Shown: positions 19,341 to 59,790 of the stretch, piece by piece
How positions within the stretch are numbered: the first letter of the stretch is position 1
Layout: every line of letters starts with the position of its first letter
Assembly (NCBI GenBank): GCA_020052415.1
Contig: JAGVPB010000048.1
Span: 114,437 to 178,436, forward strand
DNA from: Bacteroidales bacterium
GTDB lineage: Bacteria > Bacteroidota > Bacteroidia > Bacteroidales > JAADJA01
Direction of reading: 5' to 3'
Length of the DNA stretch: 64,000 bases
Notes under the pieces: generated by a model
What the model saw: only the letters and a program-made list of their open reading frames with translations
Database searches by the model: none
What the model was told of the DNA's origin: nothing
Program-made: the position numbers and the translations under genes

Positions 19341-19518
19341 GGTTCAAGGTTCAAGGTTTAAGGTTTAAGGTTTCGGGTTTCGGGTTTCAGGTTTCGGGTT
19401 TCAGGTTTCGGGTTTCAGGTTTCGGGTTTCAGGTTTCAGGTTTCGGGTTTCAGGTTTCGGGTTTCAGGTTTCAGGTTTGATGTTTCATCTCGCCGTAGGC
19501 GTGACAGGTTTCAGGTTT
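19341..19518. repeat. Heptamer tandem array, ~20 x GGTTTCR/GGTTYAA, with an embedded TCTCGCC-GTA-GGCGTGACA hairpin
   Basis: Read directly: 20 units at 19341-19480, hairpin at 19488-19506. Confidence 0.95.
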
Positions 19519-19597
19519 GTGATACAAAGTTTTTCAAATATTTATTGATTTGCATTTCAGGATTTGCGAAATTTGCTTCTTATTTCAAAATTCGGAC

Positions 19598-20242
19598 ATG
19601 AAATTTTTTGCATTATTTATAAATACTAATCTTTTTCTTTTATTCTTTTTGATCCTGATGATCCCGGGTTGTATTAATTCAGGCAAGGAGTCAGGTGATC
19701 AATCAAGTGATACAGTATCAAAAACTATTTCCAACAAGAAAGAATCTCCCAGACTCGTTTATGACAACCAGGGAAATATTACCGAGCGTCATTCGGTTTC
19801 ATACCGTCAAAAAGATAATTCTGTCAGATCGCGCGACAGTTATTATTACAAATATGATGAACATAAAAATGTGATCGAAGAAACTAAGAAATCTCACGAT
19901 CCTAATGGTAACCTGGTTTTCAAAAATGTTAATTTTTACTATTTCAATGACCTGAACCAGAAAGTTGAGCAAAAATTCTTCAGCTATGACGCAAATGACG
20001 TTTTAAACCAGCAGTCACGCAATACTTATTCCTATGATAAAGATGGTAACGTTTTGCAGGAGAAAAGCTGGTACGAGAACGGTTCACTAAAATCCATCAT
20101 CAATTCGAGCCGAAACTCAGAAGGTTACCTGACAGCAGAAGAATATATCAATTTCGATATTGACGGTACAAAAAAGTATCATAAAAAATTTCATTACTCA
20201 AAATATGGCCTCGAAAAAACCGAGGACCTAATGCAGAAATAA
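19598..20242 (+). CDS. Hypothetical lipoprotein with YD-like beta-hairpin repeats
   Basis: Lipobox IPGC; repeated Y.YD..GN units. Confidence 0.7.
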   Translation: MKFFALFINTNLFLLFFLILMIPGCINSGKESGDQSSDTVSKTISNKKESPRLVYDNQGNITERHSVSYRQKDNSVRSRDSYYYKYDEHKNVIEETKKSHDPNGNLVFKNVNFYYFNDLNQKVEQKFFSYDANDVLNQQSRNTYSYDKDGNVLQEKSWYENGSLKSIINSSRNSEGYLTAEEYINFDIDGTKKYHKKFHYSKYGLEKTEDLMQK

Positions 20243-20246
20243 CATC

Positions 20247-20783
20247 ATGTACCAGCCACAATCGGTTTATACTAAAGTAGCATGGGCAGCTATTCTGAGG
20301 GAACTTACAGGCGAAAAATCCAATAATGATTTTCCGAAGGATTTTCCAAATGAAACGTTAAGCGACAAACGCGGTTGTTTTGTTTCGCTTCATAAAACAG
20401 ACGGCTCACTCAGGGGTTGTATCGGTACTATTGAACCTACTGAATCCGACCTAAAACAGGAGATTATTCGAAATGCCATTTCCGCTTGCTTTCACGATAC
20501 ACGGTTCGATCCGGTAGTACCTGGCGAGATAGACGATATCGAAATTTCAGTGGACGTTCTTACAGAGCCGGAAGAAATTTTCTCCTTTGATGATCTCGAT
20601 CCTCTGATCTATGGTGTTATTGTTTGCGATAAATCAGGGAGACGGGCCGTTTTACTTCCCTCAATCCCATCCATAGATACCGTTGAAAGACAAATTGAAA
20701 TCGTCAAACGAAAAGCCGGACTGGGCCATATCAATGACAATAAGTTAAAGTTTTACAGGTTTACATCGAACAGGTATCATTAG
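20247..20783 (+). CDS. amrA: AMMECR1-domain protein (AmmeMemoRadiSam system protein A)
   Basis: GCFVSLH, LRGCIGT, D.RF.PV, ISVDVL and LLP motifs. Confidence 0.9.
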   Translation: MYQPQSVYTKVAWAAILRELTGEKSNNDFPKDFPNETLSDKRGCFVSLHKTDGSLRGCIGTIEPTESDLKQEIIRNAISACFHDTRFDPVVPGEIDDIEISVDVLTEPEEIFSFDDLDPLIYGVIVCDKSGRRAVLLPSIPSIDTVERQIEIVKRKAGLGHINDNKLKFYRFTSNRYH

Positions 20784-20888
20784 GTTTCAGGTTCAAGGTT
20801 TCAAGTTTCAGGTTTCATCTCGCCGTCGGCGAGACAGGTTTCAGGTTTCATCTTTCATCTCGCAGTAGGCGTGACAGGTTTCAGGTTT
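20783..20888. repeat. GGTTTCA-family heptamer array with two TCTCGCC-N3-GGCGWGACA hairpins
   Basis: Hairpins at 20818-20836 and 20858-20876; same orientation as the 19341 array. Confidence 0.9.
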
Positions 20889-20897
20889 TACTATCCC

Positions 20898-22754
20898 TTA
20901 TAAATCCAAAAACCGCTGAAACAGCACCTGAAGATAAGCTTTACCTTCCATAATTACGGAGTCTTTCTTTTCCGCTACAATACTGATTTCAGCAAAATTT
21001 TCAATTCTCCGGTGATAGACAAAATATCCGTCAGGACACACCCAGCCTACTCCTTCAGTTGCTTCAAAATATGCAAACTCCGGTGTGTATGGATTGAAAA
21101 GGTTGCGACTCCAGAAAAAATCATCATCAGGTAATCCAAGCTGATGGAGCAAGGTTCCTGGAATGTCGTTCTGGGAACTGATCCTGCTCATTTGTATTCC
21201 CCTGTACTCATCCTTTACAACCCCACCGCAGAATAATAACGGTATCCTGCGATAATCCTTTGACAATATTGGCCGGTTGAATTGAGAATTATGGCTGTGG
21301 TCAGCCACGATCACAAACAATGTATTGTCGTACCATCCTTCAAGCCTGGCCTTTCTGAAAAATTCGCCGAGACATTGATCGGTATAATAAACAGAATTTA
21401 AAAAATCATTTTCCGATTCAGCAAATAGGATTATAGTATCCTTTGGCTGGTCGTAAGGCGAGTGGGAACTGATGGTAAACAATTCAGCGAGAAACGGCTG
21501 CTTTTCTGTTTTCAAACCCGATAATAATTCATCAAACATGTGTTCATCAAATATTCCGAGTTTACCCCGCGGGAGGTCAGGATTAAAATCGGTTTCTTCC
21601 AATACACGGTCAAATCCGTTAACCATCAGGTATGATTTGATACCTCCGTATATGAGTTGCCCGCCAAAATAAAAAGATGAAGAATATCCTTCTGCGTTTA
21701 ATATTTTGGCCAGTCCCGGCAATTTGGGTATTTTGTCAAGATGATGTGTCAATGAGGTTATAGGTGTAGCCGGGAAACCGCTATTTACAGACTCAATTCC
21801 CTGCTCCGATCGGTTGCCTGTAGCATACAATTGCGTAAACAAAATACCATTCTTTTCAAGCTTTTTAAATTCAGGAGTTATACCTGCGGCGCCGCTTAAC
21901 GATTCGATTACATCTCCTGTCCAGCTTTCCATAATGAGAATAACTATGTTTGGGCGATTGTTTTTTAAAATTGAGATGGTTGTATCCGTCCTGGTTTCAT
22001 GCAGCCTCACTACTATTTCCTCAGCTTTTTTCTGATCCATGAATTTAAATGGATTTTCGTTTTTGTAAGCAAAGTTTTCATTGGCACTTATTAGAAATGC
22101 ATATCCTGAATTTACTGCAGCAAGGTTTAAAATATTATGTTTAGAATAATAAGACTGGCTTTGGTTTATCGGTATTTCAGCCCATCCACCACGAATCCCC
22201 AGAAATAAAAATCCTGGGGTCAGAATTAACAGGATGGACGGTACTATTTTAAATCCGGTCATAATATTTTTCAGCCGGAAATACCGGTAATAAATAAAAT
22301 ACCATAACAGAACCTGAATAATTAGTAAAACCACGAGGATAAAAAAAATAACGCCGGAAGTGGAATGGTAGATCTCAGCAGGATGGTTCAAATGAAATAA
22401 CGCCTTATAAGGAAGCTTGGTTTTCCATTCCTCATAAATTCCAAGCTCAGCGGTCGTGATAAGGAACGAGGCAATTAAAGCCAGCAGAGTGTATATTCGA
22501 TCAATTAAAAGTAACCAGTTTGAACGAAAAACAGCATAAAGTACCAGTATCACAAAAGTAAAGACCAACAGGTAACAGGCAGTTGCGATATCCAGGGAAA
22601 GGGCGAACCAAAAGCCTTGGAGAGTTTCATAAACGGTGATATGCTCTGCCTTTAGAGTATTGATCTCCCATAAAAGAAAAAGCAACCTGGAGAAACCAAA
22701 GATCAGCATCCAGAAAAACAGGCGCTTTATCAGGTTATACAAGACTTCTTTCAT
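20898..22754 (-). CDS. LTA synthase family / sulfatase-like membrane protein
   Basis: N-terminal TM helices; IRGG, PNIVILIMES, T.SSHSPY and VADH motifs. Confidence 0.9.
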   Translation of the reverse strand: MKEVLYNLIKRLFFWMLIFGFSRLLFLLWEINTLKAEHITVYETLQGFWFALSLDIATACYLLVFTFVILVLYAVFRSNWLLLIDRIYTLLALIASFLITTAELGIYEEWKTKLPYKALFHLNHPAEIYHSTSGVIFFILVVLLIIQVLLWYFIYYRYFRLKNIMTGFKIVPSILLILTPGFLFLGIRGGWAEIPINQSQSYYSKHNILNLAAVNSGYAFLISANENFAYKNENPFKFMDQKKAEEIVVRLHETRTDTTISILKNNRPNIVILIMESWTGDVIESLSGAAGITPEFKKLEKNGILFTQLYATGNRSEQGIESVNSGFPATPITSLTHHLDKIPKLPGLAKILNAEGYSSSFYFGGQLIYGGIKSYLMVNGFDRVLEETDFNPDLPRGKLGIFDEHMFDELLSGLKTEKQPFLAELFTISSHSPYDQPKDTIILFAESENDFLNSVYYTDQCLGEFFRKARLEGWYDNTLFVIVADHSHNSQFNRPILSKDYRRIPLLFCGGVVKDEYRGIQMSRISSQNDIPGTLLHQLGLPDDDFFWSRNLFNPYTPEFAYFEATEGVGWVCPDGYFVYHRRIENFAEISIVAEKKDSVIMEGKAYLQVLFQRFLDL

Positions 22755-22850
22755 TTTGCCAAATTAATTTGCTCTAATAACATCCGGCTCCTATTGATTG
22801 TTCCCTTTTCGCCGGAAGCAATTTCACCATTATGGCCGAAAAAGCTTATC

Positions 22851-23858
22851 CTAAGAAGCAAGGATTTTCTTTGTTAATTTGATTTCATCAGGATTCCCAA
22901 GTACAAATAACTTTGCACCCGGGATAACCAGTGTTTCCGGTTTTGGATTGAGAATGTAGTGCCCATCGGGGGTTTTATAACCAATTATATTTACACCGGT
23001 CATCTTTCTGATCCTTAGTTCATCTATTGTCTTTCTGTTGGCTCCTGCCGGCAATTCAGGGCAAATAATTTCTTCAAGTCTTGTAGGATCCTGTCCATGA
23101 ACCGAAACGTGATCAAGAAATTCAATAATATCAGGACTTGTAACGAGGTTGGCCATGTGGGCTCCTCCAACTCTTTCGGGCATTACAACATTGTTAACAC
23201 CGGCCATTCTTAATTTTCGTTCCGAACTTTCATCAGACGCCCTGCTTATTATAACAAGTTCCGGATTAAGTGACCTTGCAGTTAATACAACATACAAATT
23301 GTCCGCATCTATCGGTAAAGTTGTGATCACCGCTTTGGCTGTTTTAACATGGGCTTTCAGCAATATCTCATCCTGAGTTGCATCACCTTCGACGAAACTT
23401 GCTTCTTTGTCCAGTTGATTCATGATCACATCATGTTTTTCCTCGATGATGATATAGCGGTGATGATGGGCATTCAGCTCTCTTGTTACCTGCTGACCAT
23501 TCCTGCCATAACCGCAAATAATTACATGATTCTGCATTTTTTTTGAATTTTTTATTCGGTTCCCCTTTATTAAAAATCTCAGTTGCCCTTCAAAAAAATG
23601 AGTCGAAATTGCTGTAAGGGCATAGGCATAAGTGGTAAAACTTGTGAGGATAAGAACCATTGTGAATACTTTTCCCGCTGAACTAAGTTCATGAATTTCA
23701 CCAAAGCCAACTGTTGAAATTGTTATGACTGTCATATACAGGGCGTTCAGGAAATTATCCCTTTCGATTATCATGAATCCTGCCACTCCTACCATCATAA
23801 TTGTAAAAAACATAATTAAACCGATCTGTATTTTTGTCCGGTTTGATAATCTCTCCAT
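22851..23858 (-). CDS. Potassium channel protein (2TM pore plus RCK/TrkA domains)
   Basis: Selectivity filter TISTVGFG; HVIICGYGRNG RCK-N motif. Confidence 0.93.
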   Translation of the reverse strand: MERLSNRTKIQIGLIMFFTIMMVGVAGFMIIERDNFLNALYMTVITISTVGFGEIHELSSAGKVFTMVLILTSFTTYAYALTAISTHFFEGQLRFLIKGNRIKNSKKMQNHVIICGYGRNGQQVTRELNAHHHRYIIIEEKHDVIMNQLDKEASFVEGDATQDEILLKAHVKTAKAVITTLPIDADNLYVVLTARSLNPELVIISRASDESSERKLRMAGVNNVVMPERVGGAHMANLVTSPDIIEFLDHVSVHGQDPTRLEEIICPELPAGANRKTIDELRIRKMTGVNIIGYKTPDGHYILNPKPETLVIPGAKLFVLGNPDEIKLTKKILAS

Positions 23859-23920
23859 TCAAAGATGTTTTACTCCACAAACATATATATAAAATTCAAC
23901 GGGGCGGCTTTGCCCATTTC

Positions 23921-25198
23921 TTATTTTTCAACCTGTTTCAGCAATTCATTTCCAATAGCGCAACTCAAACATTTTTTCCGGGAACAATATTCACTTTTCA
24001 GATGGAGCAAAGCCTGTGTATTGAAGGCAGTCCGGCAACTCATTCCAAGTGATTCCCATTTCCTGATTACAGAATTGGATTCTCCGGGGATTTGCTCGAG
24101 AAACCTCAGAGAACGATCGGCAAGCAACTGGTCTTTGCGGGTTTGAGCATAAACAAACATAAATGGAATGACGGTATTGATTATTACCAGGTAAACGGAA
24201 TCCTTCCCGAGTTTCTTAGGCCTTAATGCGGATTTTTTTCCGAATGAAAAATGGTTTTTCCAATACTCTGAAACCGAAACATCAAAGAGTCCGATAAGTT
24301 CCTTGATTGAAACTGCCTCCAGTACTTTTGAGAACAGGTGCGAAGATTTATGGACAAGGTTAGCAAACTGGGCTATGCGGATCGTCGGGAAATTGGATGG
24401 GCGCAAGCGCATGAACCTCCACAAGTGCGGATCCATAGTGGTCAGCCGGTACTTATGCTTAAAAAAGCTATATTCATTATAAAGTTTTTGCTCATATTCA
24501 TCCTTCGTCGTTGACGAAAGTAATCCAGCCTGACCGAAAAACAAGGCTTCCAACTGGAATAAACTGTTTTTATGATTGGCGAGGTAATTTAGCGATAACG
24601 ATTTTGCAAGCAAATCGAATGGCAGTGTATTGACTTTAAAGCCAAAATTCCGGGCAAGGAATTCGTAAAAGGTCCGTTCCCAATTGTTTTTATTGAACCT
24701 GAGCTGTGATTGAATTTCAATTGCTTTGGTTTCGAGCCTTTCGACCAGTAATCTGTCGAGCCAGTTGTTGATCACAAATCTGTCAATATTATTAAACAGC
24801 TTTTCACAGGCGATCCAGTGTCGGCTGTTCATAATATCCTGGTAACATTCGTAAAGCGAATGGTTATAGTTTTTGTTGATTTCAAGCGTCGCCACAGGCT
24901 GTTTGCTTTTTGTTTCAATCAGGCGGTCATCCTGGTGTACAATATGTAAAATAATATTATCATAAGCCTTATCGAGGTGATGTTTATGTGAATACCAGTC
25001 GGAAGATTTAACATGGATTTCAACATTCCCTGCCCAGAGGGTATCATCAATCTTTATTTTCGCATTAAAAAAATCAGGTCCTGAATTGGTATTGTGCATA
25101 CCCGGATCAAGAACAGTAACAGCCTCCCCCGAAACAAGAAATAAATTCGGGTAAAGGAGCTTATACTTCCACAGGTAATGAATAAATTCTTCGGTCAT
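23921..25198 (-). CDS. DUF2851 family protein
   Basis: GPDFFNAKI, WAGNVEIH..SSDW..H.H..D, RLRPSNFPTIR and C-terminal C...C..C.IG motifs. Confidence 0.9.
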   Translation of the reverse strand: MTEEFIHYLWKYKLLYPNLFLVSGEAVTVLDPGMHNTNSGPDFFNAKIKIDDTLWAGNVEIHVKSSDWYSHKHHLDKAYDNIILHIVHQDDRLIETKSKQPVATLEINKNYNHSLYECYQDIMNSRHWIACEKLFNNIDRFVINNWLDRLLVERLETKAIEIQSQLRFNKNNWERTFYEFLARNFGFKVNTLPFDLLAKSLSLNYLANHKNSLFQLEALFFGQAGLLSSTTKDEYEQKLYNEYSFFKHKYRLTTMDPHLWRFMRLRPSNFPTIRIAQFANLVHKSSHLFSKVLEAVSIKELIGLFDVSVSEYWKNHFSFGKKSALRPKKLGKDSVYLVIINTVIPFMFVYAQTRKDQLLADRSLRFLEQIPGESNSVIRKWESLGMSCRTAFNTQALLHLKSEYCSRKKCLSCAIGNELLKQVEK

Positions 25199-25331
25199 TG
25201 GGATAAATTTTTATAAAAATAGTAAAATTTTGAAATGCATGTTAAATATCCTTAAAATTTCTTAAAAACATGGCTTGAACATGTATTATGTTGCTATCTT
25301 CACGTTAAAATTCAGGTTAAAAAATTATAAC

Positions 25332-25994
25332 ATGAAAGCTTTTAAACAATTAGATTTCAATACCGAAAATAAAATTGTTTTCAGTTATGCAGGCATCATG
25401 TGCCTACTTGGTTTTTTCATCCTCCTTTCTCCTGTCTTCGCTCAGGATGATAGTATTCAAAGCAATCAGCCAAAGGTTCATATTGATGTTAAAAGACAAT
25501 ATGACCAGAATGGTAACTTGTCGGAATATGATTCCATTTATTCATGGTATTGGTCAGGGAAAGGCGGTTTACCTTCCGGATTTGGTTCTGTTGATTCTTT
25601 AAGATATTCCTCTCATCCTGATTTATTCAACCAGGACTGGCCTTTTGATCTTAATTTCCAATTTCCTGACTTTCCCGGACTTTTCGATTATAATGTACCA
25701 TTGAATGATTCGCTTGGTATTTCATTTCATGATTTTGATGAATTGCAGAAATACTTTGAGGATAATTTTGATTTCAAAAGTATGATGCCGGATGAAGAAT
25801 TTTTTAAAAAATACGATCAGCAACACGATGAATTCATGGAACGCTACCGGAAGTACCAGAAAGAAAATCAAAAGCTAATTGAAAAGTATTTTGGACGCCC
25901 TTTGCAGGAGACCGACACCATTCCGGGATTTGAGCGGGATAGATATGTACCGGACAGCAAAGGGAGTAATCCTGAAAAGCATGGCAAAATATAG
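25332..25994 (+). CDS. Hypothetical secreted protein (D/F-rich)
   Basis: Signal-like hydrophobic stretch; V.R.YD.NGN...YDS.YSW motif; long open frame. Confidence 0.7.
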   Translation: MKAFKQLDFNTENKIVFSYAGIMCLLGFFILLSPVFAQDDSIQSNQPKVHIDVKRQYDQNGNLSEYDSIYSWYWSGKGGLPSGFGSVDSLRYSSHPDLFNQDWPFDLNFQFPDFPGLFDYNVPLNDSLGISFHDFDELQKYFEDNFDFKSMMPDEEFFKKYDQQHDEFMERYRKYQKENQKLIEKYFGRPLQETDTIPGFERDRYVPDSKGSNPEKHGKI

Positions 25995-26164
25995 TTTAAA
26001 GCCAATGAATAGATTTATCCCTTTTAGCTGAAGTTTCATACCTGTATAATTTGCGTCGTCAGATTTTTAATTCGAAACCTGAGTTTTTTTAAACAAAAAT
26101 TGCTGCCTAAGCCTAAACTCGATATATTTGTACTACTTTAGTAAATTGATTTGGTTTGAAAACA

Positions 26165-26250
26165 TGACACACCATCAGCGAGATGAAACTTGGCCCAATG
26201 GGATGCCTTCGGCAAAACTTATAACAACATTGAACCTGAAACTTGAAAAC
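26165..26250. repeat. Composite of degenerate mini-palindromes and heptamers upstream of rarA
   Basis: GCGAGATGAAAC (reverse complement of the hairpin-element end), CCCAATGGGATGCCTTCGGCA (26194-26214) and TTGAACCTGAAACTTGAAA. Confidence 0.6.
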
Positions 26251-26257
26251 TTAATCC

Positions 26258-27532: not shown

Positions 27533-28140
27533 TGAATAACCTAAAAATTACGGTTCTTCTGATTCTTTTTGCAATTATTTCTGTCCGGTGTAATTCAGGC
27601 GTGAAAAGGATTGAAGGCGTTCCATTTACACATTCCTATAATACCTGCGAATCTTCCGGATATGATTTCGGTGAAATAATTACCATTGGCGACTCCAATA
27701 ATAAGTTTATGATCAGCCTGCCTTATGAGTGGGACATCCAGGAATCGTATTCTGATACGTTGTATGGAATAATTGCCACCAACACTTATGAAGCTGAAGA
27801 AAATCCGGCCATATTCATGCTGTTATCGGTCACCGGATACAGGACAGAGGATTCGCTTTATCAATATTTTACTGAAGAACTGAGGACCCTGAAGAAGGAC
27901 AAGCAAATGAACGTTCTGGAAGCCGGTGAAATTGACCTTAACGGTAACCACGCCTATTGGATTAAGTTTGAAAATAATGAAAACAATAATAAATTCACTA
28001 ATCTGGTTCACTATGTAAAATCAACTGATGAAAAGGAGATATATCTGATCCATTCCTGCGTGGGCGATATAGACGCAGCTGATGATAAAATCTGTGCATT
28101 AAAGAAATTAGCTGCTTCTTTTGAACTTGTTGATCATTGA
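27532..28140 (+). CDS. Hypothetical lipoprotein, possibly PsbP-like fold
   Basis: Signal peptide ending SVRC; F.ISLP..W and terminal SF motifs; start overlaps the rarA stop. Confidence 0.65.
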   Translation: MNNLKITVLLILFAIISVRCNSGVKRIEGVPFTHSYNTCESSGYDFGEIITIGDSNNKFMISLPYEWDIQESYSDTLYGIIATNTYEAEENPAIFMLLSVTGYRTEDSLYQYFTEELRTLKKDKQMNVLEAGEIDLNGNHAYWIKFENNENNNKFTNLVHYVKSTDEKEIYLIHSCVGDIDAADDKICALKKLAASFELVDH

Positions 28141-28191
28141 GTTTGATTATTGTCGTTTTTATAAATTTGTACCGTTTAGAAAGGAGACTTG

Positions 28192-28339
28192 AGAAATTAG
28201 AAATTAGATATTAGAAATTAGATATTAGATATTAGATATTAGATATTAGATATTAGATGTTAGATGTCGGTTACCAATAAGGAACTGAGAACTCTGAACT
28301 GACTTCAAACATTGAACCTTGAACCTTGAACCTTGAACA
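28192..28339. repeat. Two heptamer arrays in the kdsA leader: 11 x AGAWRTT and 4 x TTGAACC
   Basis: Read directly at 28192-28268 and 28312-28339. Confidence 0.93.
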
Positions 28340-28340
28340 A

Positions 28341-29487: not shown

Positions 29488-29520
29488 TATTGATTTTGTG
29501 TTACTATTCAGTCGCATATT

Positions 29521-29969
29521 TTTCCCGCAGATTACGCAGATTATCGCTGATATTCTTTTAGTTTATTTACTTTTCTGAATATACTTTTAGAAATGTCAGC
29601 AGTATTAAAATTTACAAGTATTGCTAACTTTTTTCCGGATAATTTTAGATATGTCAAAACAATTTTATGGTGTACTTCTGCCAGTTGTTCTATTGATTTC
29701 ACCTCAATAATAACTAAGTTATTCACTAATATATCTATTCTAAAGCCAAGGTCTAATTTTTCTTCTTCATAAACTACTGGCATAGGCACTTCTGTTTTTA
29801 CAACCAATCCTGCCTTCCTAAGTTCAAATACAAGAGCAGCAACGTAAACTGATTCTAATAAACCAGGTCCAAGAGTACTGTAAACCTTGAAAATAGCACC
29901 TCTGATAATATATGAAATATCGTTTTCAGTCATTATTTTTCAGCGTTTATCAGCGTAATCTGCGGGAGA
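29521..29969. mobile_element. Putative inverted-repeat-bounded cassette carrying the GxxExxY gene
   Basis: Arms 29521-29550 and 29940-29969 match at 26/30 as inverted repeats and are built from CGCWGATWA 9-mers. Mobility is inferred, not shown. Confidence 0.55.
29541..29933 (-). CDS. GxxExxY protein (PD-(D/E)XK nuclease-like family)
   Basis: LGPGLLESVY, RID..V...VIIEVKS and TYLKL.......LVNF motifs. Confidence 0.93.
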   Translation of the reverse strand: MTENDISYIIRGAIFKVYSTLGPGLLESVYVAALVFELRKAGLVVKTEVPMPVVYEEEKLDLGFRIDILVNNLVIIEVKSIEQLAEVHHKIVLTYLKLSGKKLAILVNFNTADISKSIFRKVNKLKEYQR

Positions 29970-30005
29970 TTTTTCAAACGGGGTTAGTCGTTACGATTTT
30001 TTATC

Positions 30006-32247: not shown

Positions 32248-32276
32248 ATGTTAGATTTTAGACGGTAGATGTTAGA
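32248..32276. repeat. Left arm of a 29-bp heptamer-built inverted repeat
   Basis: ATGTTAGATTTTAGACGGTAGATGTTAGA; its reverse complement matches 34245-34273 at 26/29. Confidence 0.8.
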
Positions 32277-32401: not shown

Positions 32402-34156
32402 ATGAAAAAAATCTTATATTTTTTTTGGATATTTCTGATATCAAATTTAGTAATTGGTTCTCCATATATTTCACTACGAATCGGAAGAACCTTTGACCCT
32501 GTTCCGGGAATTATTCAAGTACCCATTACATGTGGTTATATTATTAATCCGATTGACCATTTGGTATCAAGCTGGAACTGGTATATTGCTTACCATTCCA
32601 ATGTATTATATGCCGGTGAAGTGGGAAGCAGTGCAACCCTTGTGAATTATCATCCTGAATTTCCAGAGGAGAATTATTCTACATTAATTATTGCAGATAA
32701 CCCCTTACCGGGCTGGAATACCATTTTAATTTCCTTTAGTACTTCAAATCCCGGAGAAATTAATGCTAATGAAAAATTTTTTGATATCGAATTCTATTAT
32801 ACTCCCGGATTTACTGAAATTCCAAATGTAAACTGGACATCATTAAATGGTAACGAAAGCAATATGGTTGATGGCGCAGGAAATTCTTTTATTCTTCATT
32901 TGTCTGATGGTTATGCTGGCCCGCATAATATATTGCCTTTACAACCAACAGCAACTTTAAAGATTGGTTTTATAAATGAAGCAATCCCGGGATATATCCT
33001 TGTCCCGGTCACACTTGAAGCGGTAAATAATTCATTGATTTTTTGGAACTCTATTTCATCTTTTGGCTGGTATATTGCTTACGACACGGAGGTTTTATAT
33101 GCCGGGGATCCCTCATCACCAGCAACTTTACTCAATTTTCATCCCAGTTTCCCGCCATCTAATTATTTGACCAATATTATTGCTGATAATCCACTACCAG
33201 GCTGGAATACGGTGGCAATTATTTGTTCACCTTGCCTTAATGAAGTATTTCCGGGAATAAAGTTCTTCGATATTCAGTTTAACTATAATGAGGTATTTAC
33301 AGCTTACCCAAATATTAAATGGACTTCTTCCCCACAAGGTTTCGAAACCAATTTGGCGGATGATGAGGGTAATGAATTCTTTTTAACATTAATTGATGGA
33401 TATGCAGGTCCGTTCATCGAATTGCCAACTCCTGCAGCCGCATTGAAGATTGGTACCATTTATGATCCGCAACCGGGTAGTCTGCAGGTTCCGGTTACAT
33501 GTGAAGCATTTGAAAATTCGCTTACAGGAAATAATATCATTACAACTCTCAACTGGCAGATTGCTTATGATACCCATGTTTTATATGCCGGGGAACCGGG
33601 TTCTTCTGCTATTTTAACCAATTTCAATCCTTCATTTTCCGGATCTTGCTTTTATTCCATTATTCGTGAAAACGAGCCTTTCCCCGATTGGAATACAATA
33701 AATATTTTAAAACCATGCGGGTGTCAGGGTACAATTAATCAGGGAGAAAAATTCTTTGATATCTCGTTTACCTATAATGAAGGTTTGACCGAAGAACCAA
33801 ATATCCTGTGGACAGGATATTCAGAAAGCTTTAAAGATTATGAAACATTTATGAGAGATGGAAATGGTAATGAATTTGAATTAACCTTTATGGATGGCTA
33901 TGTTGGGCCATATCCATTTTCTTTAAACGAAGTGGAAGTTGACCCTATTAAGGTCTGGCAATATGATAGGAAAATATTTATTGAAACTGAATGGAAGGGT
34001 GAGATGGCTCTTTTTACTTTAACCGGACAACTGTTAGTTTCGACAACCTTACAAAAGGGGCTAAATGTCATACCGGCCGACTTTGATAATTCAATTTACT
34101 TCCTTCGAATAGTCACCAAACATTTGGTATCTAATCAAAAAATCTATATCCCATGA
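32402..34156 (+). CDS. Secreted protein with three tandem ~165-aa cohesin-like repeats and a T9SS-like C-terminal domain
   Basis: Three units of L.IG.....PG...VP.T...W.IAY...VLYAG..S.A.L.N..P.F...GWNT...KFFDI.F.Y...G.N.F.L...DGY.GP; C-terminal FTLTGQ...IYFLRI...KI. Confidence 0.7.
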   Translation: MKKILYFFWIFLISNLVIGSPYISLRIGRTFDPVPGIIQVPITCGYIINPIDHLVSSWNWYIAYHSNVLYAGEVGSSATLVNYHPEFPEENYSTLIIADNPLPGWNTILISFSTSNPGEINANEKFFDIEFYYTPGFTEIPNVNWTSLNGNESNMVDGAGNSFILHLSDGYAGPHNILPLQPTATLKIGFINEAIPGYILVPVTLEAVNNSLIFWNSISSFGWYIAYDTEVLYAGDPSSPATLLNFHPSFPPSNYLTNIIADNPLPGWNTVAIICSPCLNEVFPGIKFFDIQFNYNEVFTAYPNIKWTSSPQGFETNLADDEGNEFFLTLIDGYAGPFIELPTPAAALKIGTIYDPQPGSLQVPVTCEAFENSLTGNNIITTLNWQIAYDTHVLYAGEPGSSAILTNFNPSFSGSCFYSIIRENEPFPDWNTINILKPCGCQGTINQGEKFFDISFTYNEGLTEEPNILWTGYSESFKDYETFMRDGNGNEFELTFMDGYVGPYPFSLNEVEVDPIKVWQYDRKIFIETEWKGEMALFTLTGQLLVSTTLQKGLNVIPADFDNSIYFLRIVTKHLVSNQKIYIP

Positions 34157-34226: not shown

Positions 34227-34414
34227 TGCCGGTGAACCGGCAAATCTAAAATCTAACGTCTAAAATCTAATATCTGAAATCCCTGCTCCATGCTTTTTGA
34301 ATAACGAATGAAGAACAATTGAATGAAGAATAACGAATTATCGGGGAACGGTCGTCAACACGGAACTCAGAATACAGAACCCTCTTCATGCCCCATGCTC
34401 CCCGCTCCATGCAT
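34227..34414. repeat. Mosaic of a palindrome and several heptamer families, including the right inverted-repeat arm (34245-34273)
   Basis: TGCCGG-TGAA-CCGGCA, then TCTAAAA/TCTAACG, CCATGCT, GAATAAC/GAATGAA and CAGAAYW units. Confidence 0.8.
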
Positions 34415-41242: not shown

Positions 41243-41247
41243 ACCAA

Positions 41248-41354
41248 TCCTTCCATCCTTCCATTATTCCATTATTCCATTATTCCATCTTTCCATCATT
41301 CCATTCCTCTACCATTCCATCATTCCACTCTTCCATCATCCTCTCCTTCCTTCC
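41248..41354. repeat. Degenerate octamer array (TTCCATNN)n between convergent genes
   Basis: TTCCATCC TTCCATTA TTCCATTA TTCCATTA TTCCATCT TTCCATCA...; same family as 6445-6495. Confidence 0.85.
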
Positions 41355-52190: not shown

Positions 52191-52196
52191 TAAAAG

Positions 52197-53702: not shown

Positions 53703-53740
53703 ATAGTATTAATGTTTGACCAAGTTAAAACGATCATAAT

Positions 53741-55156
53741 ATGAATTTGGATAGTTTTCTTCTGTTGAGGCACGAGATCATTCTGACGCTCGTAACTCTC
53801 ATTATCCTGATCGCCGAATTGGCTGACTGGAATAAAAACAGGGTAATTGGCATTACGCTGGTCCTGTTTTTTATAACAACGATCATTGGATTTTTACCGG
53901 TACAGGAAGGATCCTTGTTCGGAGATATGTACAGGACAGGTCCGCTGATTGCGCTGATGAAGAATATCCTGAATATCGGGGTTATGATTCTGTTTCTGCA
54001 AACAGCCGGATGGCTGAAAAAACCTGAATACTTTGGAAAAGTGAGTGAGTTTTATATGCTGATCCTTTCCACGCTGATAGGCATGAACTTTATGATTTCG
54101 TCGGGTCATTTCCTCATGTTTTATATCGGGCTTGAACTCGCTACCATTCCTATTGCATCTCTCGCTGCTTATGACCGTTATAAAAATATCAGTGCGGAAG
54201 CCGGTATCAAACTGATACTTTCTTCGGCGCTTTCATCTGGAATTTTACTATATGGTTTATCCATGATTTACGGAACAGTTGGTTCATTATACTTCACCGA
54301 TGTGGCGGTTGCCAACCTTCATACCCCTTTGCAGGTCATGGCTTTCATTTTCTTTTTTGCAGGGATGGCTTTTAAGATTTCTCTTGTTCCTTTTCATCTA
54401 TGGACTGCCGATGTTTATGAAGGTGCCCCGGTAAATGTTGCTTCCTACCTGTCGGTAATTTCGAAGGGAGCTGCAGCATTTATTTTTACCATCATTTTAT
54501 ACACTGTATTTTTTTCAATTGCTGAAATCTGGAAGGAATTGGTTTATGTGATTGCAGTTGTTACCATGACGGTCGGTAACCTGTTTGCGATCCGTCAGAA
54601 AAATCTCAAGCGTTTCCTCGCATTTTCATCAATTGCACAGGCCGGATTTATCCTTTTGGGTATCATAGACGGGACAGAGCTTGGAATGTCAACAATTATT
54701 TATTTTGTCCTGATTTATATCTTTTCGAACCTGGGCGCCTTCGGTGTCATTTCTGCTATTTCTGTTATGACCGACAAAGAGCACATGGATGATTATAACG
54801 GCCTTTACAAAACCAATCCTAAGCTCAGCCTGGTAATGATGCTTTCTTTGTTTTCACTGGCGGGCATTCCACCTGTCGCGGGATTTTTCGGAAAGTTCTT
54901 TCTGTTTACAGCCGCAGCTAACCAGGGTTATTACTGGCTGGTTTTCATTGCCGTTTTAAATGCAACGATTTCATTATACTACTATCTGCTGGTTGTTAAA
55001 GCGATGTTTATCAATAAAAATGAAAATCCGATTTCCTATTTCAGAAGTGATTTTACAACCCGGGCTGCCTTGCTGCTTTGTGTGGGCGGTATCTTTTTTA
55101 TCGGTTTCCTGAGCCCGATCTACGAATTCATCAGGTCGCTGAGCATCGGAATGTAA
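53741..55156 (+). CDS. nuoN: NADH-quinone oxidoreductase subunit N
   Basis: FKISLVPFH.W..DVYEGAP, KR.LAFSSI and SLAGIPP..GF.GK motifs. Confidence 0.96.
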   Translation: MNLDSFLLLRHEIILTLVTLIILIAELADWNKNRVIGITLVLFFITTIIGFLPVQEGSLFGDMYRTGPLIALMKNILNIGVMILFLQTAGWLKKPEYFGKVSEFYMLILSTLIGMNFMISSGHFLMFYIGLELATIPIASLAAYDRYKNISAEAGIKLILSSALSSGILLYGLSMIYGTVGSLYFTDVAVANLHTPLQVMAFIFFFAGMAFKISLVPFHLWTADVYEGAPVNVASYLSVISKGAAAFIFTIILYTVFFSIAEIWKELVYVIAVVTMTVGNLFAIRQKNLKRFLAFSSIAQAGFILLGIIDGTELGMSTIIYFVLIYIFSNLGAFGVISAISVMTDKEHMDDYNGLYKTNPKLSLVMMLSLFSLAGIPPVAGFFGKFFLFTAAANQGYYWLVFIAVLNATISLYYYLLVVKAMFINKNENPISYFRSDFTTRAALLLCVGGIFFIGFLSPIYEFIRSLSIGM

Positions 55157-55192
55157 TGACAGGGAACCATTTAGCAGGAATATACTCTGAAG

Positions 55193-55647
55193 AAATGAAA
55201 AACATAAAACACGAAACGAAAAATGAAAAAGTATGAGAAGCAATTACAAATATGATCTGGAAGAACGGCTTATTGAATTTTCACTACTGATTATTGATAT
55301 AGATGAAATGTTGCCTAATACAAGGGCTGGAAATCATATAGCAGGACAACTGATAAGGTCAGGCACATCACCGGCATTTAATTATGGTGAAGCTCAGGTT
55401 GCAGAATCAAGAAATGATTTTATTCATAAAATGAAAATTTGCCTAAAGGAACTTAAGGAATCTAATGTAGCATTACAAATTATCAAAAGAAAGCCTTTGG
55501 TAACCGAATTCACAAAAGTTGACAAATGCATTGCTGAATGCAAAGAATTAATTTCAATATTTGTAAAAAGCATTGAAACCGCCAAAAAAAATAAATCGTC
55601 CAAAAACACTTAAACATTTTTCATTATTTGTTAAGTGTTTTTCATTT
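55193..55647. mobile_element. Putative inverted-repeat-bounded cassette carrying the four-helix-bundle gene
   Basis: Arms 55193-55225 and 55615-55647 match at 26/33 as inverted repeats; the outer 12 bp (AAATGAAAAACA) are perfect. A-rich, so less significant than the GxxExxY repeats. Confidence 0.45.
55233..55613 (+). CDS. Four helix bundle protein (23S rRNA intervening-sequence protein family)
   Basis: DLEER...F, QLIRSGTS.A.NY.EA..AES..DFIHK..I.LKEL.ES and EL..I motifs. Confidence 0.93.
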   Translation: MRSNYKYDLEERLIEFSLLIIDIDEMLPNTRAGNHIAGQLIRSGTSPAFNYGEAQVAESRNDFIHKMKICLKELKESNVALQIIKRKPLVTEFTKVDKCIAECKELISIFVKSIETAKKNKSSKNT

Positions 55648-55681
55648 AATTTGATTGGATAAATAAAATCAATAGGATATT

Positions 55682-56074
55682 ATGGCATTAAATAAGGGCA
55701 AACATATCGTTAAAGAAATTAACAACATCCTTTGTACCGTGGTAGAAAGTGGTCTTACCCTTGACAGGATGAAGTTCCTGAAGGAGTTGATGGAATTCAA
55801 CAAATTCGAAGTGAAGGTAGAGGAAGAAAAAACAGAAGGTTCTGCTGAGGTCTTTTTTACTGTAGGCGTTACCGACCTGGTTTTTAATCCCATGATTGCC
55901 GTTTATGAGCGATCGCTCACAAGGAAGGACGGTCAAAAGGTAAGCCCTGCTTATTGGAACCAGGCAAAGGAGGAAATTGAAAACATTCCTTATTTTGAAT
56001 ACCGGCCAAAAAATCCTGATGCCATCAACATGGATGATTTTCTTCCGCTTTCGTGGGGGATCAGGTCGGTGTGA
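55682..56074 (+). CDS. Hypothetical protein co-oriented with and downstream of the nuo operon
   Basis: 130-aa ORF MALNKGKHIVKEI...GVTDLVFNP..AVYER with ordinary composition; no family recognised. Confidence 0.75.
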   Translation: MALNKGKHIVKEINNILCTVVESGLTLDRMKFLKELMEFNKFEVKVEEEKTEGSAEVFFTVGVTDLVFNPMIAVYERSLTRKDGQKVSPAYWNQAKEEIENIPYFEYRPKNPDAINMDDFLPLSWGIRSV

Positions 56075-56092
56075 TTTGGGTTAATTGAGAAT

Positions 56093-56145
56093 ATGTCACC
56101 TCGCACCAGTCCTACTCACGCACATGCCTTTGCTGGAATACTGGT
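56093..56145. repeat. Palindromic direct repeat, copy 1 (left of the toxin-antitoxin module)
   Basis: 42/53 identical to 56819-56871. Confidence 0.8.
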
Positions 56146-56197
56146 ATTAATAATAGTTTCTGCTGCAGGGGCAGCATATGCGATTTAATGCTGCCGG

Positions 56198-56584
56198 TTA
56201 TTTCCACTGTTGCTTTACCATATATTTTTTGAGTCCTCTGTCCCGTGTGATAAGTATTAAATTCTCGGCAATTGCCTGGGAAATAATCAACCTGTCAAAA
56301 GGATCAGTATGAAGGTTGGGTAAATTTGATAAGACTAAGAGATGAACGTAATTTATTGGAACAATTTCTATTTGGTTTCTGTCTGCGTAATTAAATAACT
56401 CTTAGAGGGAAATATCTAAAATCAATTTACCAATTTGTTTTTTGATAGTGATTTCCCATAAACTAGCTACGCTCAAAAAACAAGGTTGATGAATATCCTT
56501 GATTTTGTCTCTAACAGATGCTGGTAATTGATTATCCCCTGAAACAAACCATAGAAAAGCATGGGTATCTAATAGGAAAGCCAT
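56198..56584 (-). pseudogene. vapC: PIN-domain VapC toxin with one premature TAA
   Basis: LLDTHAFLW...SVASLWEI.IK; TAA at 56402-56404; the same frame continues ELFNY...HTDPFDRLIISQAIAENLILITRD to a stop at 56198-56200. Confidence 0.88.
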
Positions 56585-56787
56585 TACATGTAGTTTTTGA
56601 ATTCATCTAATGGCTCATCAAAGTCATCGGAAAGTTTTATTTTACCTTTAGCAAAACCAAATTCACGCATCTTGAGTTTAGATTTTGTCATAGATTTTTT
56701 TTTCAAAAATTCGATAAAATCAGCAACCTCCTCTCTCAGGTTCTTGGGCAAAGAATTAATCTCTAATTTTAAAGAAGTATTTGTCAT
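56584..56787 (-). CDS. DUF2281-type antitoxin
   Basis: I.SLP..L.EEV.DFIEFL and R.FG..KGKI.LSDDFDEPL..F..YM motifs; stop overlaps the toxin start. Confidence 0.85.
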   Translation of the reverse strand: MTNTSLKLEINSLPKNLREEVADFIEFLKKKSMTKSKLKMREFGFAKGKIKLSDDFDEPLDEFKNYM

Positions 56788-56818
56788 GCTGCAAAGATAA
56801 TAAAAAACTAAGTTGGAA

Positions 56819-56880
56819 ATGTCACCTGGCACCAGTCCTGCTTACAAACATTCCTTGGCAGGAAGACAAGTGCGAGTGGG
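56819..56880. repeat. Palindromic direct repeat, copy 2 (right of the toxin-antitoxin module)
   Basis: CTGGCACCAGTC...GACAAGTGCGAG hairpin; 42/53 identical to copy 1. Confidence 0.8.
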
Positions 56881-56896
56881 TGGTTGAATAAGATTG

Positions 56897-58396
56897 TTAC
56901 TGAACAACAATTTTCCTTGTGCAAATTTTTGTCCCGACATTTATTTTTGCAAAATAGATTCCTTTTGGCTTATTAGTAATGTCTATTTCTGTGAATGTTT
57001 GCGGGTTGAATTTAAAATTAGAACAAACCGTTTCTCCAAATAAATTATAAATTTCTATTGATCTTATCGTGCTGTTGCTGCTTATTGTAAACTTTCCGTT
57101 GCCTGGATTGGGATAAACAATAATAATTCCCTCCTGTACTATCAAGTCATCTATTCCAAGTACCGCATGAAAATAATAGTAGCTGCTATCACCATGAGTG
57201 ACTACAGTACCAGCGTCATTCCACTCTTTATAAGAATTGCTTATTGTGAAATTGTTATCATCGTAGGCATAGGTATATTGCAAGAAATTCTTCCAGATGC
57301 TGCTGTTCCATGTTTGGTGTAATTCACTTGTCAGATTATTGTCGGTATCATAGGTATAGGTGTATTGCCGGTAATTCTCCCAAGCGCTACCGTTCCAGGT
57401 TTGCCTTAATTCACTTGTCAGATTATTGTTGGCATCGTAGGCATAAGTATATTGAGCGTATTTATTCCACACGAATAAGTTCCAGTATTGGTATAACGAG
57501 CTTATCAGATTATTGTTGGTATCGTATGTATAGTTATATTGTCCCTCATTTTCCCAGTAGCTAACGTTCCAAATTTGGATTAATCTACTTGTCAGTTTAT
57601 TATTGGTATCATAGCTATAGGTAGATCGCTGGTAATTTTCCCAGGCACTGCTGTTCCAGATTTGGTATAAGCTACTTGTCAGATTATTGTTTGCGTCATA
57701 GGTATAAGTGGATTTATCGTCATTCTCCCAGGCGCCGCTGTTCCAATCTTGCCCTAATTTACTTGTCTGATTATTGTTGGCATCGTAGGTATAGGTGGAT
57801 TGATTGTAATTTTCCCAGGCGCTACCGTTCCACTTTTGCCCTAATTCACTTGTCAGATTATTATTGGCATCATAGGTAAAGATGTATTGCCAATAATTCT
57901 CCCAGGCGCTGCCGTTCCAGAATTGGTATAACCAACTTGTTTGATTATTGTTTACATCGTAAGTAAAGGTGGTTTGCCAGTCATTTTCCCAGCCGCTGCC
58001 GTTCCAATCTTGGTCTAAGTAACTATTCAGGTTATAGTTGGCATCATAAACAAAATTAATGGTTTTAGATTCAATCTTCCATCCCATGATGAGCGTATCC
58101 CATCGCCAAACATAGATGCTATCATGTATCTGGATTAATGAAAGCGGCTCAGGTGTTTGGTGTTTGATAGCTCGACTGAGTTGAAATTTGTCCGAAGGAC
58201 TCCTATTTGAGGAATTTAGTGCCGAAGGCATCCATTCGGGAGATTTGGAATTGTTCATTCCATCATCCTCCATCCTGCCCCGAATATCTTCCATTGAATT
58301 TGATATCGGATTCTGCATGTTAGATGAAGGTCGTTTGGTTTGTGTAAAAGCATTAATTGATATTGCAAGGATTGCAAAGAGTAGCGCTGTTTTCAT
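56897..58396 (-). CDS. T9SS-secreted protein with ~10 tandem 29-aa YD-like beta-hairpin repeats
   Basis: Units such as YTYTYDANNNLTSELxQxWNGSAWENYxQ; 87-bp DNA period (CACTTGTCAGATTATT at 57325 and 57412); signal peptide MKTALLFAILAISINAFTQ; YPNP...KGIYF...KIVVQ C-terminal domain. Confidence 0.88.
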   Translation of the reverse strand: MKTALLFAILAISINAFTQTKRPSSNMQNPISNSMEDIRGRMEDDGMNNSKSPEWMPSALNSSNRSPSDKFQLSRAIKHQTPEPLSLIQIHDSIYVWRWDTLIMGWKIESKTINFVYDANYNLNSYLDQDWNGSGWENDWQTTFTYDVNNNQTSWLYQFWNGSAWENYWQYIFTYDANNNLTSELGQKWNGSAWENYNQSTYTYDANNNQTSKLGQDWNSGAWENDDKSTYTYDANNNLTSSLYQIWNSSAWENYQRSTYSYDTNNKLTSRLIQIWNVSYWENEGQYNYTYDTNNNLISSLYQYWNLFVWNKYAQYTYAYDANNNLTSELRQTWNGSAWENYRQYTYTYDTDNNLTSELHQTWNSSIWKNFLQYTYAYDDNNFTISNSYKEWNDAGTVVTHGDSSYYYFHAVLGIDDLIVQEGIIIVYPNPGNGKFTISSNSTIRSIEIYNLFGETVCSNFKFNPQTFTEIDITNKPKGIYFAKINVGTKICTRKIVVQ

Positions 58397-58636
58397 TTTA
58401 ATTAATTTTAAATTTTCTTGACACATTACCATTTTGGCGAAAGTCCAATGTCGTTAAGTTAAGCCCAAAGGGCTTGAATACAAACAGCCACTGCCGCAAT
58501 TGGATTAATCGATTTTGCTGATTGTCTAATTTTAAAGTTATAATTGGATTTATGCATTCTGTAAATTGATTATGTTGTAAAATTAAAGAAATTTAATTTT
58601 TACCAGCAAGAAAATGAGTAGAATATTTCCAATATT

Positions 58637-59671
58637 TTATAAAACATAAATCGCTTTTTCTTTTTTCTCGACAACCTCCCCTATTACTGCCGAATATGGA
58701 TAACCGGCCATTTTCAGATCGGCCAGTAATTGATCTGCATTATCCGGCGGGACAGAAATCATCATTCCTCCGGATGTTTGTGCATCTGCCATCAGCATTT
58801 TATGGTTGTAATCCAAAGCATGATCAAAATGGCAATCCTTTTCAGCAAACTCAAGATTACGAAATGCTGCCCCCGGAATACAGCCCATTTCGATCAGGTC
58901 AAGCACTTTATTCATTACAGGAACTGCTTTTGAGTTAATCCTCGTGGATACATTACTCCCTTGCGCCAGCTTCAGCGCATGGCCGAGCAATCCGAAGCCT
59001 GTGATATCGGTAGCTCCTTTAATTCCATGTTTTTGCATCACCTCAGCAGCGCCTTTATTCAGGTGCTTCATGGTTTTGATGGCGGCCTGGTAAATTTCTT
59101 CATCAGCAAGGTCATTTCTCTTCGCGGAGATGATCACTCCCGTTCCGATTTGCTTGGTCAAAATAAGTACATCGCCAGGCCGGGCGCCGGTATTGGAGAT
59201 GATCTTCTCAGGATGAACCCAACCGGTGACTGACAATCCACAAACCGGAACATCATTTGCAATGGTATGTCCGCCTATGATGACTCCACCTGCTTCGGTA
59301 ACCTTATCCTGTGCGCCTCTCAATATTTCCTTTAAAATTTCCAAAGGCAATGATGCCGGAAATAGCACGATATTCAATGCTGTAATAACCTGTCCTCCCA
59401 TTGCATACACATCACTCAGGGCATTGGCAGCCGATATCTGACCAAAGTCATAGGGGTCGGAACAAACCGGCGGAAAAAAATCGGTGGTTTGAACCAGTGC
59501 ATAATCATCCCGGATTTTATAAACACCGGCATCATCGTGGGTTTCGATATCCACAAGGACATTCGCATTGGTTACTTTCGGCAGATCAGCCAGTACCTTA
59601 GCCAGTTCAGTAGCTGATAGCTTGGCAGAGCAACCGCCCTGTTCGACTAATGACAATAGATCGTGTTTCAT
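58637..59671 (-). CDS. selD: Selenide, water dikinase (Cys-type)
   Basis: GGCSAK, DDAGVY, TTDFF.P, ANALSDVYAMGG, GGHT, TDITGFGLLGH and DAQTSGG motifs. Confidence 0.97.
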   Translation of the reverse strand: MKHDLLSLVEQGGCSAKLSATELAKVLADLPKVTNANVLVDIETHDDAGVYKIRDDYALVQTTDFFPPVCSDPYDFGQISAANALSDVYAMGGQVITALNIVLFPASLPLEILKEILRGAQDKVTEAGGVIIGGHTIANDVPVCGLSVTGWVHPEKIISNTGARPGDVLILTKQIGTGVIISAKRNDLADEEIYQAAIKTMKHLNKGAAEVMQKHGIKGATDITGFGLLGHALKLAQGSNVSTRINSKAVPVMNKVLDLIEMGCIPGAAFRNLEFAEKDCHFDHALDYNHKMLMADAQTSGGMMISVPPDNADQLLADLKMAGYPYSAVIGEVVEKKEKAIYVL

Positions 59672-59677
59672 TTTAAA

Positions 59678-59790
59678 AGTTCAATGTTTGTCTCGCCGAA
59701 GGCGAGATGAAGTTCAAAGTTAGTTTAGAGTTTTGGGTTCCGGGTCTAACATCTAAATACTAAATACTCCGTACTAAAGACTATAGACTA
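59678..59790. repeat. Hairpin element TGTCTCGCC-GAA-GGCGAGATGAA plus degenerate heptamers in the yedF-selD spacer
   Basis: 59689-59711 is the reverse complement of the 19488/20818 element; nearby TCTAACA-TCTAAAT-ACTAAAT...ACTAAAG-ACTATAG heptamers. Confidence 0.8.

Follow-up and report, generated by a model that had tools for sequence, protein, structure and literature searches.

In REPIN/RAYT systems (REP, repetitive extragenic palindromic; RAYT, REP-associated tyrosine transposase), a low-copy gene lies between inverted short repeats that are also dispersed through intergenic DNA in tens to hundreds of copies, and each gene lineage has its own repeat family. In some transposons, subterminal repeats mark and join the element ends. 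Cyanobacterial short tandemly repeated repetitive (STRR) sequences are intergenic arrays of heptamers. The accessory protein Avd of diversity-generating retroelements (DGRs) is a small, nucleic-acid-binding oligomer with a four-helix-bundle fold. Here we analyse a 64,000-nt stretch of Bacteroidales DNA (the window; G000:C79:114437-178436, where G000 is a 4.67-Mb assembly with 39% GC and 97% completeness). Within it, a gene for a four-helix-bundle protein, of the same fold as Avd, and a gene for a GxxExxY protein are each enclosed by inverted arms built of short tandem words. We use H for a four-helix-bundle (PF05635/TIGR02436) gene or locus and G for a GxxExxY (PF13366/TIGR04256) gene or locus.

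Intervening sequences (IVSs) of 23S rRNA that bear an open reading frame (ORF) are described from several bacteria; in the available text they are 428-444 nt long, have a 28-bp stem that is cut by RNase III, and encode S23p, a member of PF05635, for which a homopentameric toroid is cited (PMC4990558). The window cassettes resemble these IVSs, as described, in their size (~450-525 nt), in terminal inverted repeats of about 28 bp that can close a stem around one small ORF, and in a patchy, horizontally acquired distribution without a transposase. The PF05635 protein is common to the IVSs and the H cassette only; the G cassette encodes another protein. Unlike the described IVSs, which sit in an rRNA helix, both window cassettes lie between protein-coding genes, and an Rfam search of the window found only the selenocysteine tRNA (tRNA-Sec). 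In addition, the cassette arms are tandem arrays of clade-specific words rather than a unique stem, the same design has a second, unrelated cargo (PF13366), and G000 carries hundreds of orphan arrays of the same words.

The likeness to REPIN/RAYT systems lies in a gene that was found to be flanked by inverted copies of a genome-dispersed repeat, and in a word family that is tied to the gene lineage. However, the cargo is PF05635 or PF13366 rather than a Y1 (HUH) transposase, genes for which (Y1_Tnp) occur elsewhere in G000, and the orphans are single-orientation tandem arrays (1/129 close array pairs inverted) rather than palindromic REP doublets. Furthermore, the cassettes themselves undergo gain, loss and swapping, while vertical inheritance is the rule described for most RAYTs (10.1101/2022.05.22.493013). 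With Avd, the H protein has the fold in common. Reverse transcriptase PF00078 had no match in G000 (97% complete; controls matched in 3/14 genomes), which means that the H proteins of this genome do not act as Avd in a DGR, and the DGR/Avd reading was rejected; G000 also has no template/variable repeat pair.

Heptamer repeats are reported as TAACTGA units from Beggiatoaceae, Cyanobacteria and Bacteroidetes (PMC4679880) and as GGGAATC-type units from Xanthomonas and Nostoc (PMC4692102); in the portions of these papers available, translational regulators or G-quadruplexes are proposed (PMC4679880, PMC4692102). The arrays of G000 share with them, as far as that text goes, tandem 7-nt units, many copies, an intergenic position near gene ends and a sporadic distribution across phyla. 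They differ in that G000 has 122 distinct heptamer units by Tandem Repeats Finder (TRF), many of which match the arms of resident PF05635 cassettes.

A recurrent mini-cassette with inverted word arms

A widespread mini-cassette carries either a GxxExxY or a four-helix-bundle gene as its cargo. Arms were counted as present at an inverted-arm score of at least 28, with permuted pairs of 5' and 3' flanks as the control. Across the genus (29 genomes: G000 and 28 others), 79/112 H loci have arms, compared to 2.7% of permuted pairs; this set consists of 100 loci fetched of ~245 matches and 12 own loci. The corresponding count for G loci is 21/35, compared to 3.9% of permuted pairs. A further set of H loci, gathered from named genomes with a search alignment of 4 proteins, gave 56/79 (2.7% of permuted pairs). 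These genomes are mostly Bacteroidota, with Acidobacteriota, Anaerolineae, Omnitrophota, Bdellovibrionales and others also present. In G000 itself, 13 of the 19 full-length H or G loci have arms, each with its own word. The H words are GGTTCAA, AGTTCGA, CTGGTTA, GGGAGCA, GGCAGT, AAGGGGAAT and TTAGATA, and the G words are CACATAG, CACAGAG, CACAAAGT, CACGAATTG and CGCAGATTA. Genomes of the genus have 2-16 copies of PF05635/TIGR02436 each.

The cassette is ~450-550 nt long and carries one small ORF between inverted arms of 3-8 degenerate tandem words, each of 6-11 nt. It spans the distance from the upstream stop codon to just short of the next start, usually in the sense direction within strings of co-oriented genes. 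Each cassette is a single ORF, with no element-encoded transposase or integrase, and PF13366 is a nuclease-like family outside the known transposase families.

In the window, the H protein matches PF05635 with 38.9 bits (cut-off 33.8), and its arms are A/T-rich, 40 nt long and 75% complementary (Table 1). The structure that it matches, PDB 2rld, is an entry with 5 chains. The arms of the G cassette are 28 nt long and 89% complementary. Among 29 GxxExxY homologues from the genus, the residues G24/E27/Y30 and D67/E77/K79 are kept in 28-29/29, which is the conservation expected of an active PD-(D/E)XK nuclease.

Comparison with relatives shows gain, loss and replacement of the cassette as one unit. 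Three relatives lack the window H cassette at the orthologous junction, where the spacer measures 12 nt in G012, 76 nt in G014 and 68 nt in G038. G013 and G014 lack the G cassette, and only 22-23 nt separate the two convergent genes there; in G006, G003, G010 and G001 this spacer, as calculated from coordinates, is shorter by ~470-490 nt. A copy of this G cassette lies between other genes in G012 and is 86% identical arm to arm; housekeeping genes of G012 are 67-72% identical to those of G000. In G014, compared to G001, a 553-nt cassette insertion is bounded by ATGGA on either side. Another cassette keeps its synteny across five species, an indication of vertical descent.

Replacement is seen at a junction that holds three unrelated H cassettes: one in G014, one in G013, G038 and G001, and one in G037. 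G012 has a 1.77-kb insert there instead. At this junction G013 and G014 have flanks with 96% and 85% identity, and the arms start at or over the upstream stop codon and finish 6-40 nt ahead of the next ATG. In G001, the outer part of a G037-type 3' arm remains beside the resident cassette, and this remnant is a probable scar. The junction (G014:C4:767 kb and the orthologous sites L167 and L172-L176) lies upstream of a gene starting MKIFNKILIANRG, and it looks as if it were a preferred slot.

An earlier reading of the window, made from the letters alone (hereafter the sequence-only reading), had proposed cassettes of one gene each, enclosed by inverted arms that are built of repeats, and lacking a transposase. 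This is borne out for the GxxExxY and four-helix-bundle genes, whose family labels (TIGR04256/PF13366 and TIGR02436/PF05635) also hold, and the presence/absence polymorphism that it called for is seen at orthologous junctions of both window cassettes.

Words, protein clades and orphan arrays

The sequence-only reading had suggested a genome-wide scan for arrays of period 7, 8 and 9. As run with TRF, the scan gave 499/95/115 rows with at least 3 copies for the three periods in the whole of G000, far above the 14/6/14 rows obtained after scrambling the genome inside 60-nt blocks. Merging left 666 arrays, 520 of them within the 11.7% of the genome that is intergenic on a crude ORF map. These are STRR-type arrays, with tandem 7-nt units at many intergenic loci. 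They are densest in convergent spacers (1.86/kb), followed by tandem (1.05/kb) and divergent spacers (0.6/kb), and have no strand bias with respect to transcription (159:135). Arrays also lie close to genes: 32% are within 10 nt of a gene end, compared to 16% under random placement within the same spacer, and in tandem spacers 72 arrays adjoin the upstream stop codon and 24 the downstream start.

Both the word and its period are specific to clades of H proteins and shift stepwise along a maximum-likelihood tree of 112 of these proteins. Arm 6-mers are shared by 57-100% of protein pairs with at least 70% amino-acid identity and by 0% of pairs below 40%. The orphan arrays use largely the words of resident cassettes, expanded in this lineage in particular. 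The consensus unit of 172/375 orphan heptamer arrays occurs in an arm of a resident H cassette; shuffled arms reach 58 on average and 114 at most. Arms and orphan arrays thus have word families in common. Words of cassette clades foreign to G000 are rare among its orphans, and the arms of foreign cassettes match G000 orphans according to the closeness of their protein to a resident one (Spearman 0.52, p 2e-4, 46 loci, kin not being independent). Three copies of CTGGTTA in a row have 87 matches in G000 and 0-7 elsewhere, and three copies of GGTTTCA have 57, 20, 15, 10, 7 and 5 matches in the six genomes with the clade protein.

These distributions bear on the idea that the small proteins are regulatory repeat-binding proteins, with the arms as autoregulation operators, the orphans as sites recruited by the host (at the 3' ends of genes, for instance), and no function in mobility. 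The enrichment in convergent spacers, the position at gene ends, and the words that arms and orphans have in common fit this idea. However, close relatives differ from one another by cassette gain, loss and swapping, orphan numbers differ at least 10-fold among genomes with the same protein clade, and the arrays ignore the strand of transcription. We consider this explanation improbable.

The sequence-only reading had also suggested a test of whether arrays are enriched as inverted pairs around TIGR02436/TIGR04256 genes, and had taken unpaired arrays for scars or landing pads. In a genome-wide count, arrays in general do not pair up in this way around genes. Among 479 neighbouring TRF array pairs in G000, 54 enclose exactly one gene, and by 10-mer sharing none of these is inverted and none direct; we therefore rejected inverted pairing as a genome-wide rule (0/54). 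As for scars, the probable one in G001 stands, but orphans are mostly long single-orientation runs. With runs of up to 21 units and only one scar-like remnant, the scar model for orphans was rejected.

All three inverted brackets that had been reported in the window are present. The third (32248-32276 / 34245-34273; 29 nt, 90% complementary) encloses a gene for a 584-aa protein at 32402..34156, with the arms 125 and 88 nt away from the ORF. The label 'cohesin-like' corresponds to a sub-threshold Cohesin match, accompanied by a sub-threshold type IX secretion system (T9SS) tail, and no DNA homologue of the gene was found in the 28 other genus genomes. A flank test of 1723 genes gave inverted-flank scores of at least 32 for 15 of them, compared to 3.8 expected. 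These are 6 H or G genes, 2 Y1-transposase genes and 7 others, including the 584-aa gene. Its bracket is not separable from chance in this test, so the proposal that it is a cassette was rejected; the bracket is probably a chance pair of orphan arrays.

Y1-transposase (IS200/RAYT-like) genes of G000 lie at C17:25776, C13:54841, C8:12095, C9:173191 and C55:201844, and at least 3 of them (C17, C13, C8) have long repeats of their own on their flanks, direct or inverted. A classical REP/RAYT-type system therefore coexists with the word cassettes in G000.

The chance bracket of the 584-aa gene, and the occurrence of intergenic heptamer arrays in other phyla (PMC4692102, PMC4679880, in the text available), are what one would expect if the arms were ordinary slippage-prone simple repeats, STRR-like, lying by chance beside small genes. 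For both gene families this is already contradicted by arms at 60-71% of loci, compared to 3-4% of permuted pairs, in three independent sets, as well as by the clade-specific words and the joint transfer of arms and gene. We give the slippage explanation almost no weight.

DNA words and RNA stems

Our best reading is that the cassette is a selfish gene-plus-cognate-word element, an intergenic twin of the ORF-bearing rRNA IVSs that follows a REPIN/RAYT-like logic. The word arrays would be putative sites at which the oligomeric protein of the same cassette binds its cognate word; the reader may be a pentameric ring in PF05635 cassettes and a nuclease with an intact D-ExK site in PF13366 cassettes. 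The inverted layout would mark and join both element ends at the DNA level, as do subterminal repeats in some transposons and the inverted REPs that flank RAYT genes. Pairing between the arms during read-through transcription would be a side effect, tolerated or useful, and it would also make cassettes viable as RNase III-excised intervening sequences after landing in 23S rRNA. The orphan arrays would have arisen from such sites by dispersal or expansion, apart from a few that would be scars. The core, in which gene and word form a cassette that turns over between genomes and is linked to the orphan arrays, has good support. For the proposed mechanism, with the oligomer binding the words of its own cassette and with element ends set in the DNA by the inverted arrays, we see the balance as even.

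The principal competitor is an element that acts at the RNA level, an IVS-like form of the suggestion in the sequence-only reading that paired arms would loop the cargo out of mRNA or ssDNA. In this scenario, the cassette is transcribed by read-through from the host operon, the arms pair to a long stem that RNase III cuts, and a small mRNA is released while the messages of the neighbours stay intact; selection keeps the pairing, and the words are incidental. Several observations are consistent with this. The arms form the closing stem of both window cassettes in the minimum free energy (MFE) and centroid folds, and for the G cassette the fold is better than chance (z -3.4, 0/100 shuffles as good). 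The size (~450-480 nt) and arm length match the 428-444-nt IVS with its RNase III-cut 28-bp stem (PMC4990558, as far as described there). In G000, 14/19 cassettes are co-oriented with both neighbours and 18/19 with the downstream neighbour.

On the other hand, the H cassette folds no better than its shuffles (z -0.4). Arm mismatches do not favor G.U over A.C (121:111 for H, 39:41 for G) in alignments where the arms are only ~81% identical, and an RNA-wobble signature was rejected on these counts. Arms also pair nearly as well with same-word arms from other loci as with their own partner: the score is 36.2 for own arms and 32.6 for arms of different loci in the same word clade, with the own arm better in 129 cases and worse in 60. 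Complementarity of the arms is thus mostly explained by the word that both contain, and the word and its inverted placement are conserved more than base-pairing itself. Finally, an RNA-level role leaves the clade-specific words and the single-orientation orphan arrays unexplained. We regard it as unlikely, if less so than the regulatory explanation.

Several results weigh against the gene-plus-cognate-word reading. H cassettes need another enzyme, as their protein lacks a catalytic motif. The 5-bp ATGGA duplication is a single case, seen between species only 73-78% identical, and comparison with relatives showed no evident target-site duplication at the window G cassette. Outside the window, a GxxExxY gene at G000:C79:241102-241452 has direct, not inverted, CCTTTGCG arrays, and three divergent H genes are without arms. 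The strong sense-orientation bias suits an RNA-level role at least equally.

The link between protein and orphans is also loose across genomes, and possession of a protein does not predict orphan numbers in the genus. G013, G017 and G001 each have 1 match to the triple CTGGTTA although the clade protein is present. In G008 and G031, the triple GGTTTCA occurs almost only in the cassette's own arms; conversely, G006 (25 matches) and G032 (20 matches) have it with the clade protein undetected, both assemblies being incomplete. The orphan expansions are therefore bursts specific to lineages. Amino-acid columns that might specify the word are confounded by overall divergence, as pairs with different words are less identical overall (0.56 compared to 0.68), and co-inheritance alone would yield clade-specific words.

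Features of the window and significance

Coordinates of the cassettes, the 584-aa bracket and the orphan arrays are collected in Table 1. TRF confirmed the short-period tracts of the window that the sequence-only reading had listed, except that those at 26230 and 32248, though visible by eye, are degenerate and score too low for TRF. Further TRF arrays lie at 29526-29543, 29936-29956 and 34297-34323. The orphan array at 19341 begins 3 nt past a stop codon, and its word is that of the resident H cassette G000:C61. No resident cassette using the word of the 41247 array was found in G000.

Table 1. Positions of cassettes, bracket arms and orphan arrays in the window
Feature	Position	Strand	Basis
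GxxExxY cassette, whole unit	29500..29978	-	stretch 86% identical to copy at another locus in G012
GxxExxY gene, 130 aa, PD-(D/E)XK-like	29541..29933	-	TIGR04256, PF13366
GxxExxY cassette, 5' arm (gene orientation), built of CGCAGATTA-type words	29940..29967	-	inverted-repeat search
GxxExxY cassette, 3' arm, overlapping stop codon	29523..29550	-	inverted-repeat search
H cassette, occupying entire spacer between two co-oriented genes	55157..55681	+	inverted-repeat search
Four-helix-bundle gene, 126 aa	55233..55613	+	TIGR02436, PF05635 23S_rRNA_IVP; PDB 2rld E 3e-12
H cassette, 5' arm, A-rich, weakly periodic	55193..55232	+	inverted-repeat search
H cassette, 3' arm	55608..55647	+	inverted-repeat search
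TTAGATN-word tract, left partner of 584-aa bracket	32248..32276		inverted-repeat search; degenerate, by eye
AAATCTA array, right partner of 584-aa bracket, same word inverted	34242..34281		TRF
Orphan 8/16-nt array (TCCATTAT TCCAGTAT)	6445..6495	+	TRF
Orphan array, GGTTCAA then AGGTTTC, ~21 units	19341..19487	+	TRF period 7, 19 copies
Orphan AGGTTTC array, begins at stop codon, contains two CTCGCC-N3-GGCGAG-type hairpins	20782..20888	+	TRF
Orphan AGATATT array, 10.6 units	28192..28265	+	TRF period 7
Orphan AACCTTG array (other strand: GGTTCAA), stops just short of kdsA-like start	28308..28338	+	TRF
Orphan 8-nt array (ATCATTCC / ATTATTCC), 11.6 copies	41247..41350	+	TRF
Orphan CTAAATA array beside CTCGCC-N3-GGCGAG hairpin at 59692	59753..59791	+	TRF

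Two other non-coding elements accompany the arrays. A conserved CTCGCC-N3-GGCGAG hairpin occurs at 19489-19503, 20819-20833 and 59692-59706 of the window and in 43 copies in G000, inside arrays of several word families; 41/43 copies are intergenic, and for 25/43 the nearest TRF array is no more than 60 nt away. The hairpin may represent a REP-like element in its own right, or else a point from which arrays nucleate. At 34297-34381 there is a conserved non-coding core of ~75-100 nt with a periodicity of ~11 nt. G000 has 12 more matches to it, ~9 of which cover most of the core (C31 twice, C44, C3, C54, C6, C90, C42 and C20), and copies usually have C-rich-strand word arrays on both sides.

The window also contains a selenium set (selD, a yedF-like gene and tRNA-Sec, at 58637-60389 and 63814-63906) and an in-gene 87-nt tandem repeat with a 261-nt super-period and ~9 copies (57251-58048, within a 511-aa ORF at 56897..58432 on the minus strand). 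In relatives, a ~190-nt element (L164 726-939; G014:C4 ~1735.5 kb) is present in many copies of 83-96% identity in G012 and G013.

Heptamer arrays themselves are already published; here they are tied to small genes known from rRNA intervening sequences. Literature searches, supplements aside, found no published link between heptamer arrays and these genes, and the terms 'four helix' and 'intervening sequence' are both absent from the MacGregor text on heptamer repeats. By title and the opening of the abstract, none of the 23S rRNA IVS papers among the matches listed mentions tandem-word arms or intergenic cassettes. No literature naming TIGR02436 was found, and the GxxExxY papers among the matches listed do not concern a cassette of this design.

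A broader proposal can be put forward tentatively, and we hold it to be possible rather than probable. PF05635 and, separately, GxxExxY may be families of sequence-specific readers, each clade with its own 6-11-nt word and one word per subunit of the oligomer, that drive or maintain arrays in the host as RAYTs do for REPINs. Heptamer arrays (STRR, TAACTGA, GGGAATC), ORF-bearing rRNA IVSs and the DGR Avd fold might then be faces of one element class.

For genome annotation, the cassettes account for many odd spacers inside operons. Two very large families of unknown function (PF05635/TIGR02436 and PF13366/TIGR04256) would gain a genetic context and a testable ligand, and the abundant short-period arrays that have been on record for decades from cyanobacteria, xanthomonads, Beggiatoaceae and Bacteroidota would gain a candidate partner protein. 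If the proposal is true, ORF-bearing rRNA IVSs would be those few cassettes whose insertion happened to fall in rRNA. Should the recognition of words prove real and modular, small programmable nucleic-acid binders could be drawn from the family.

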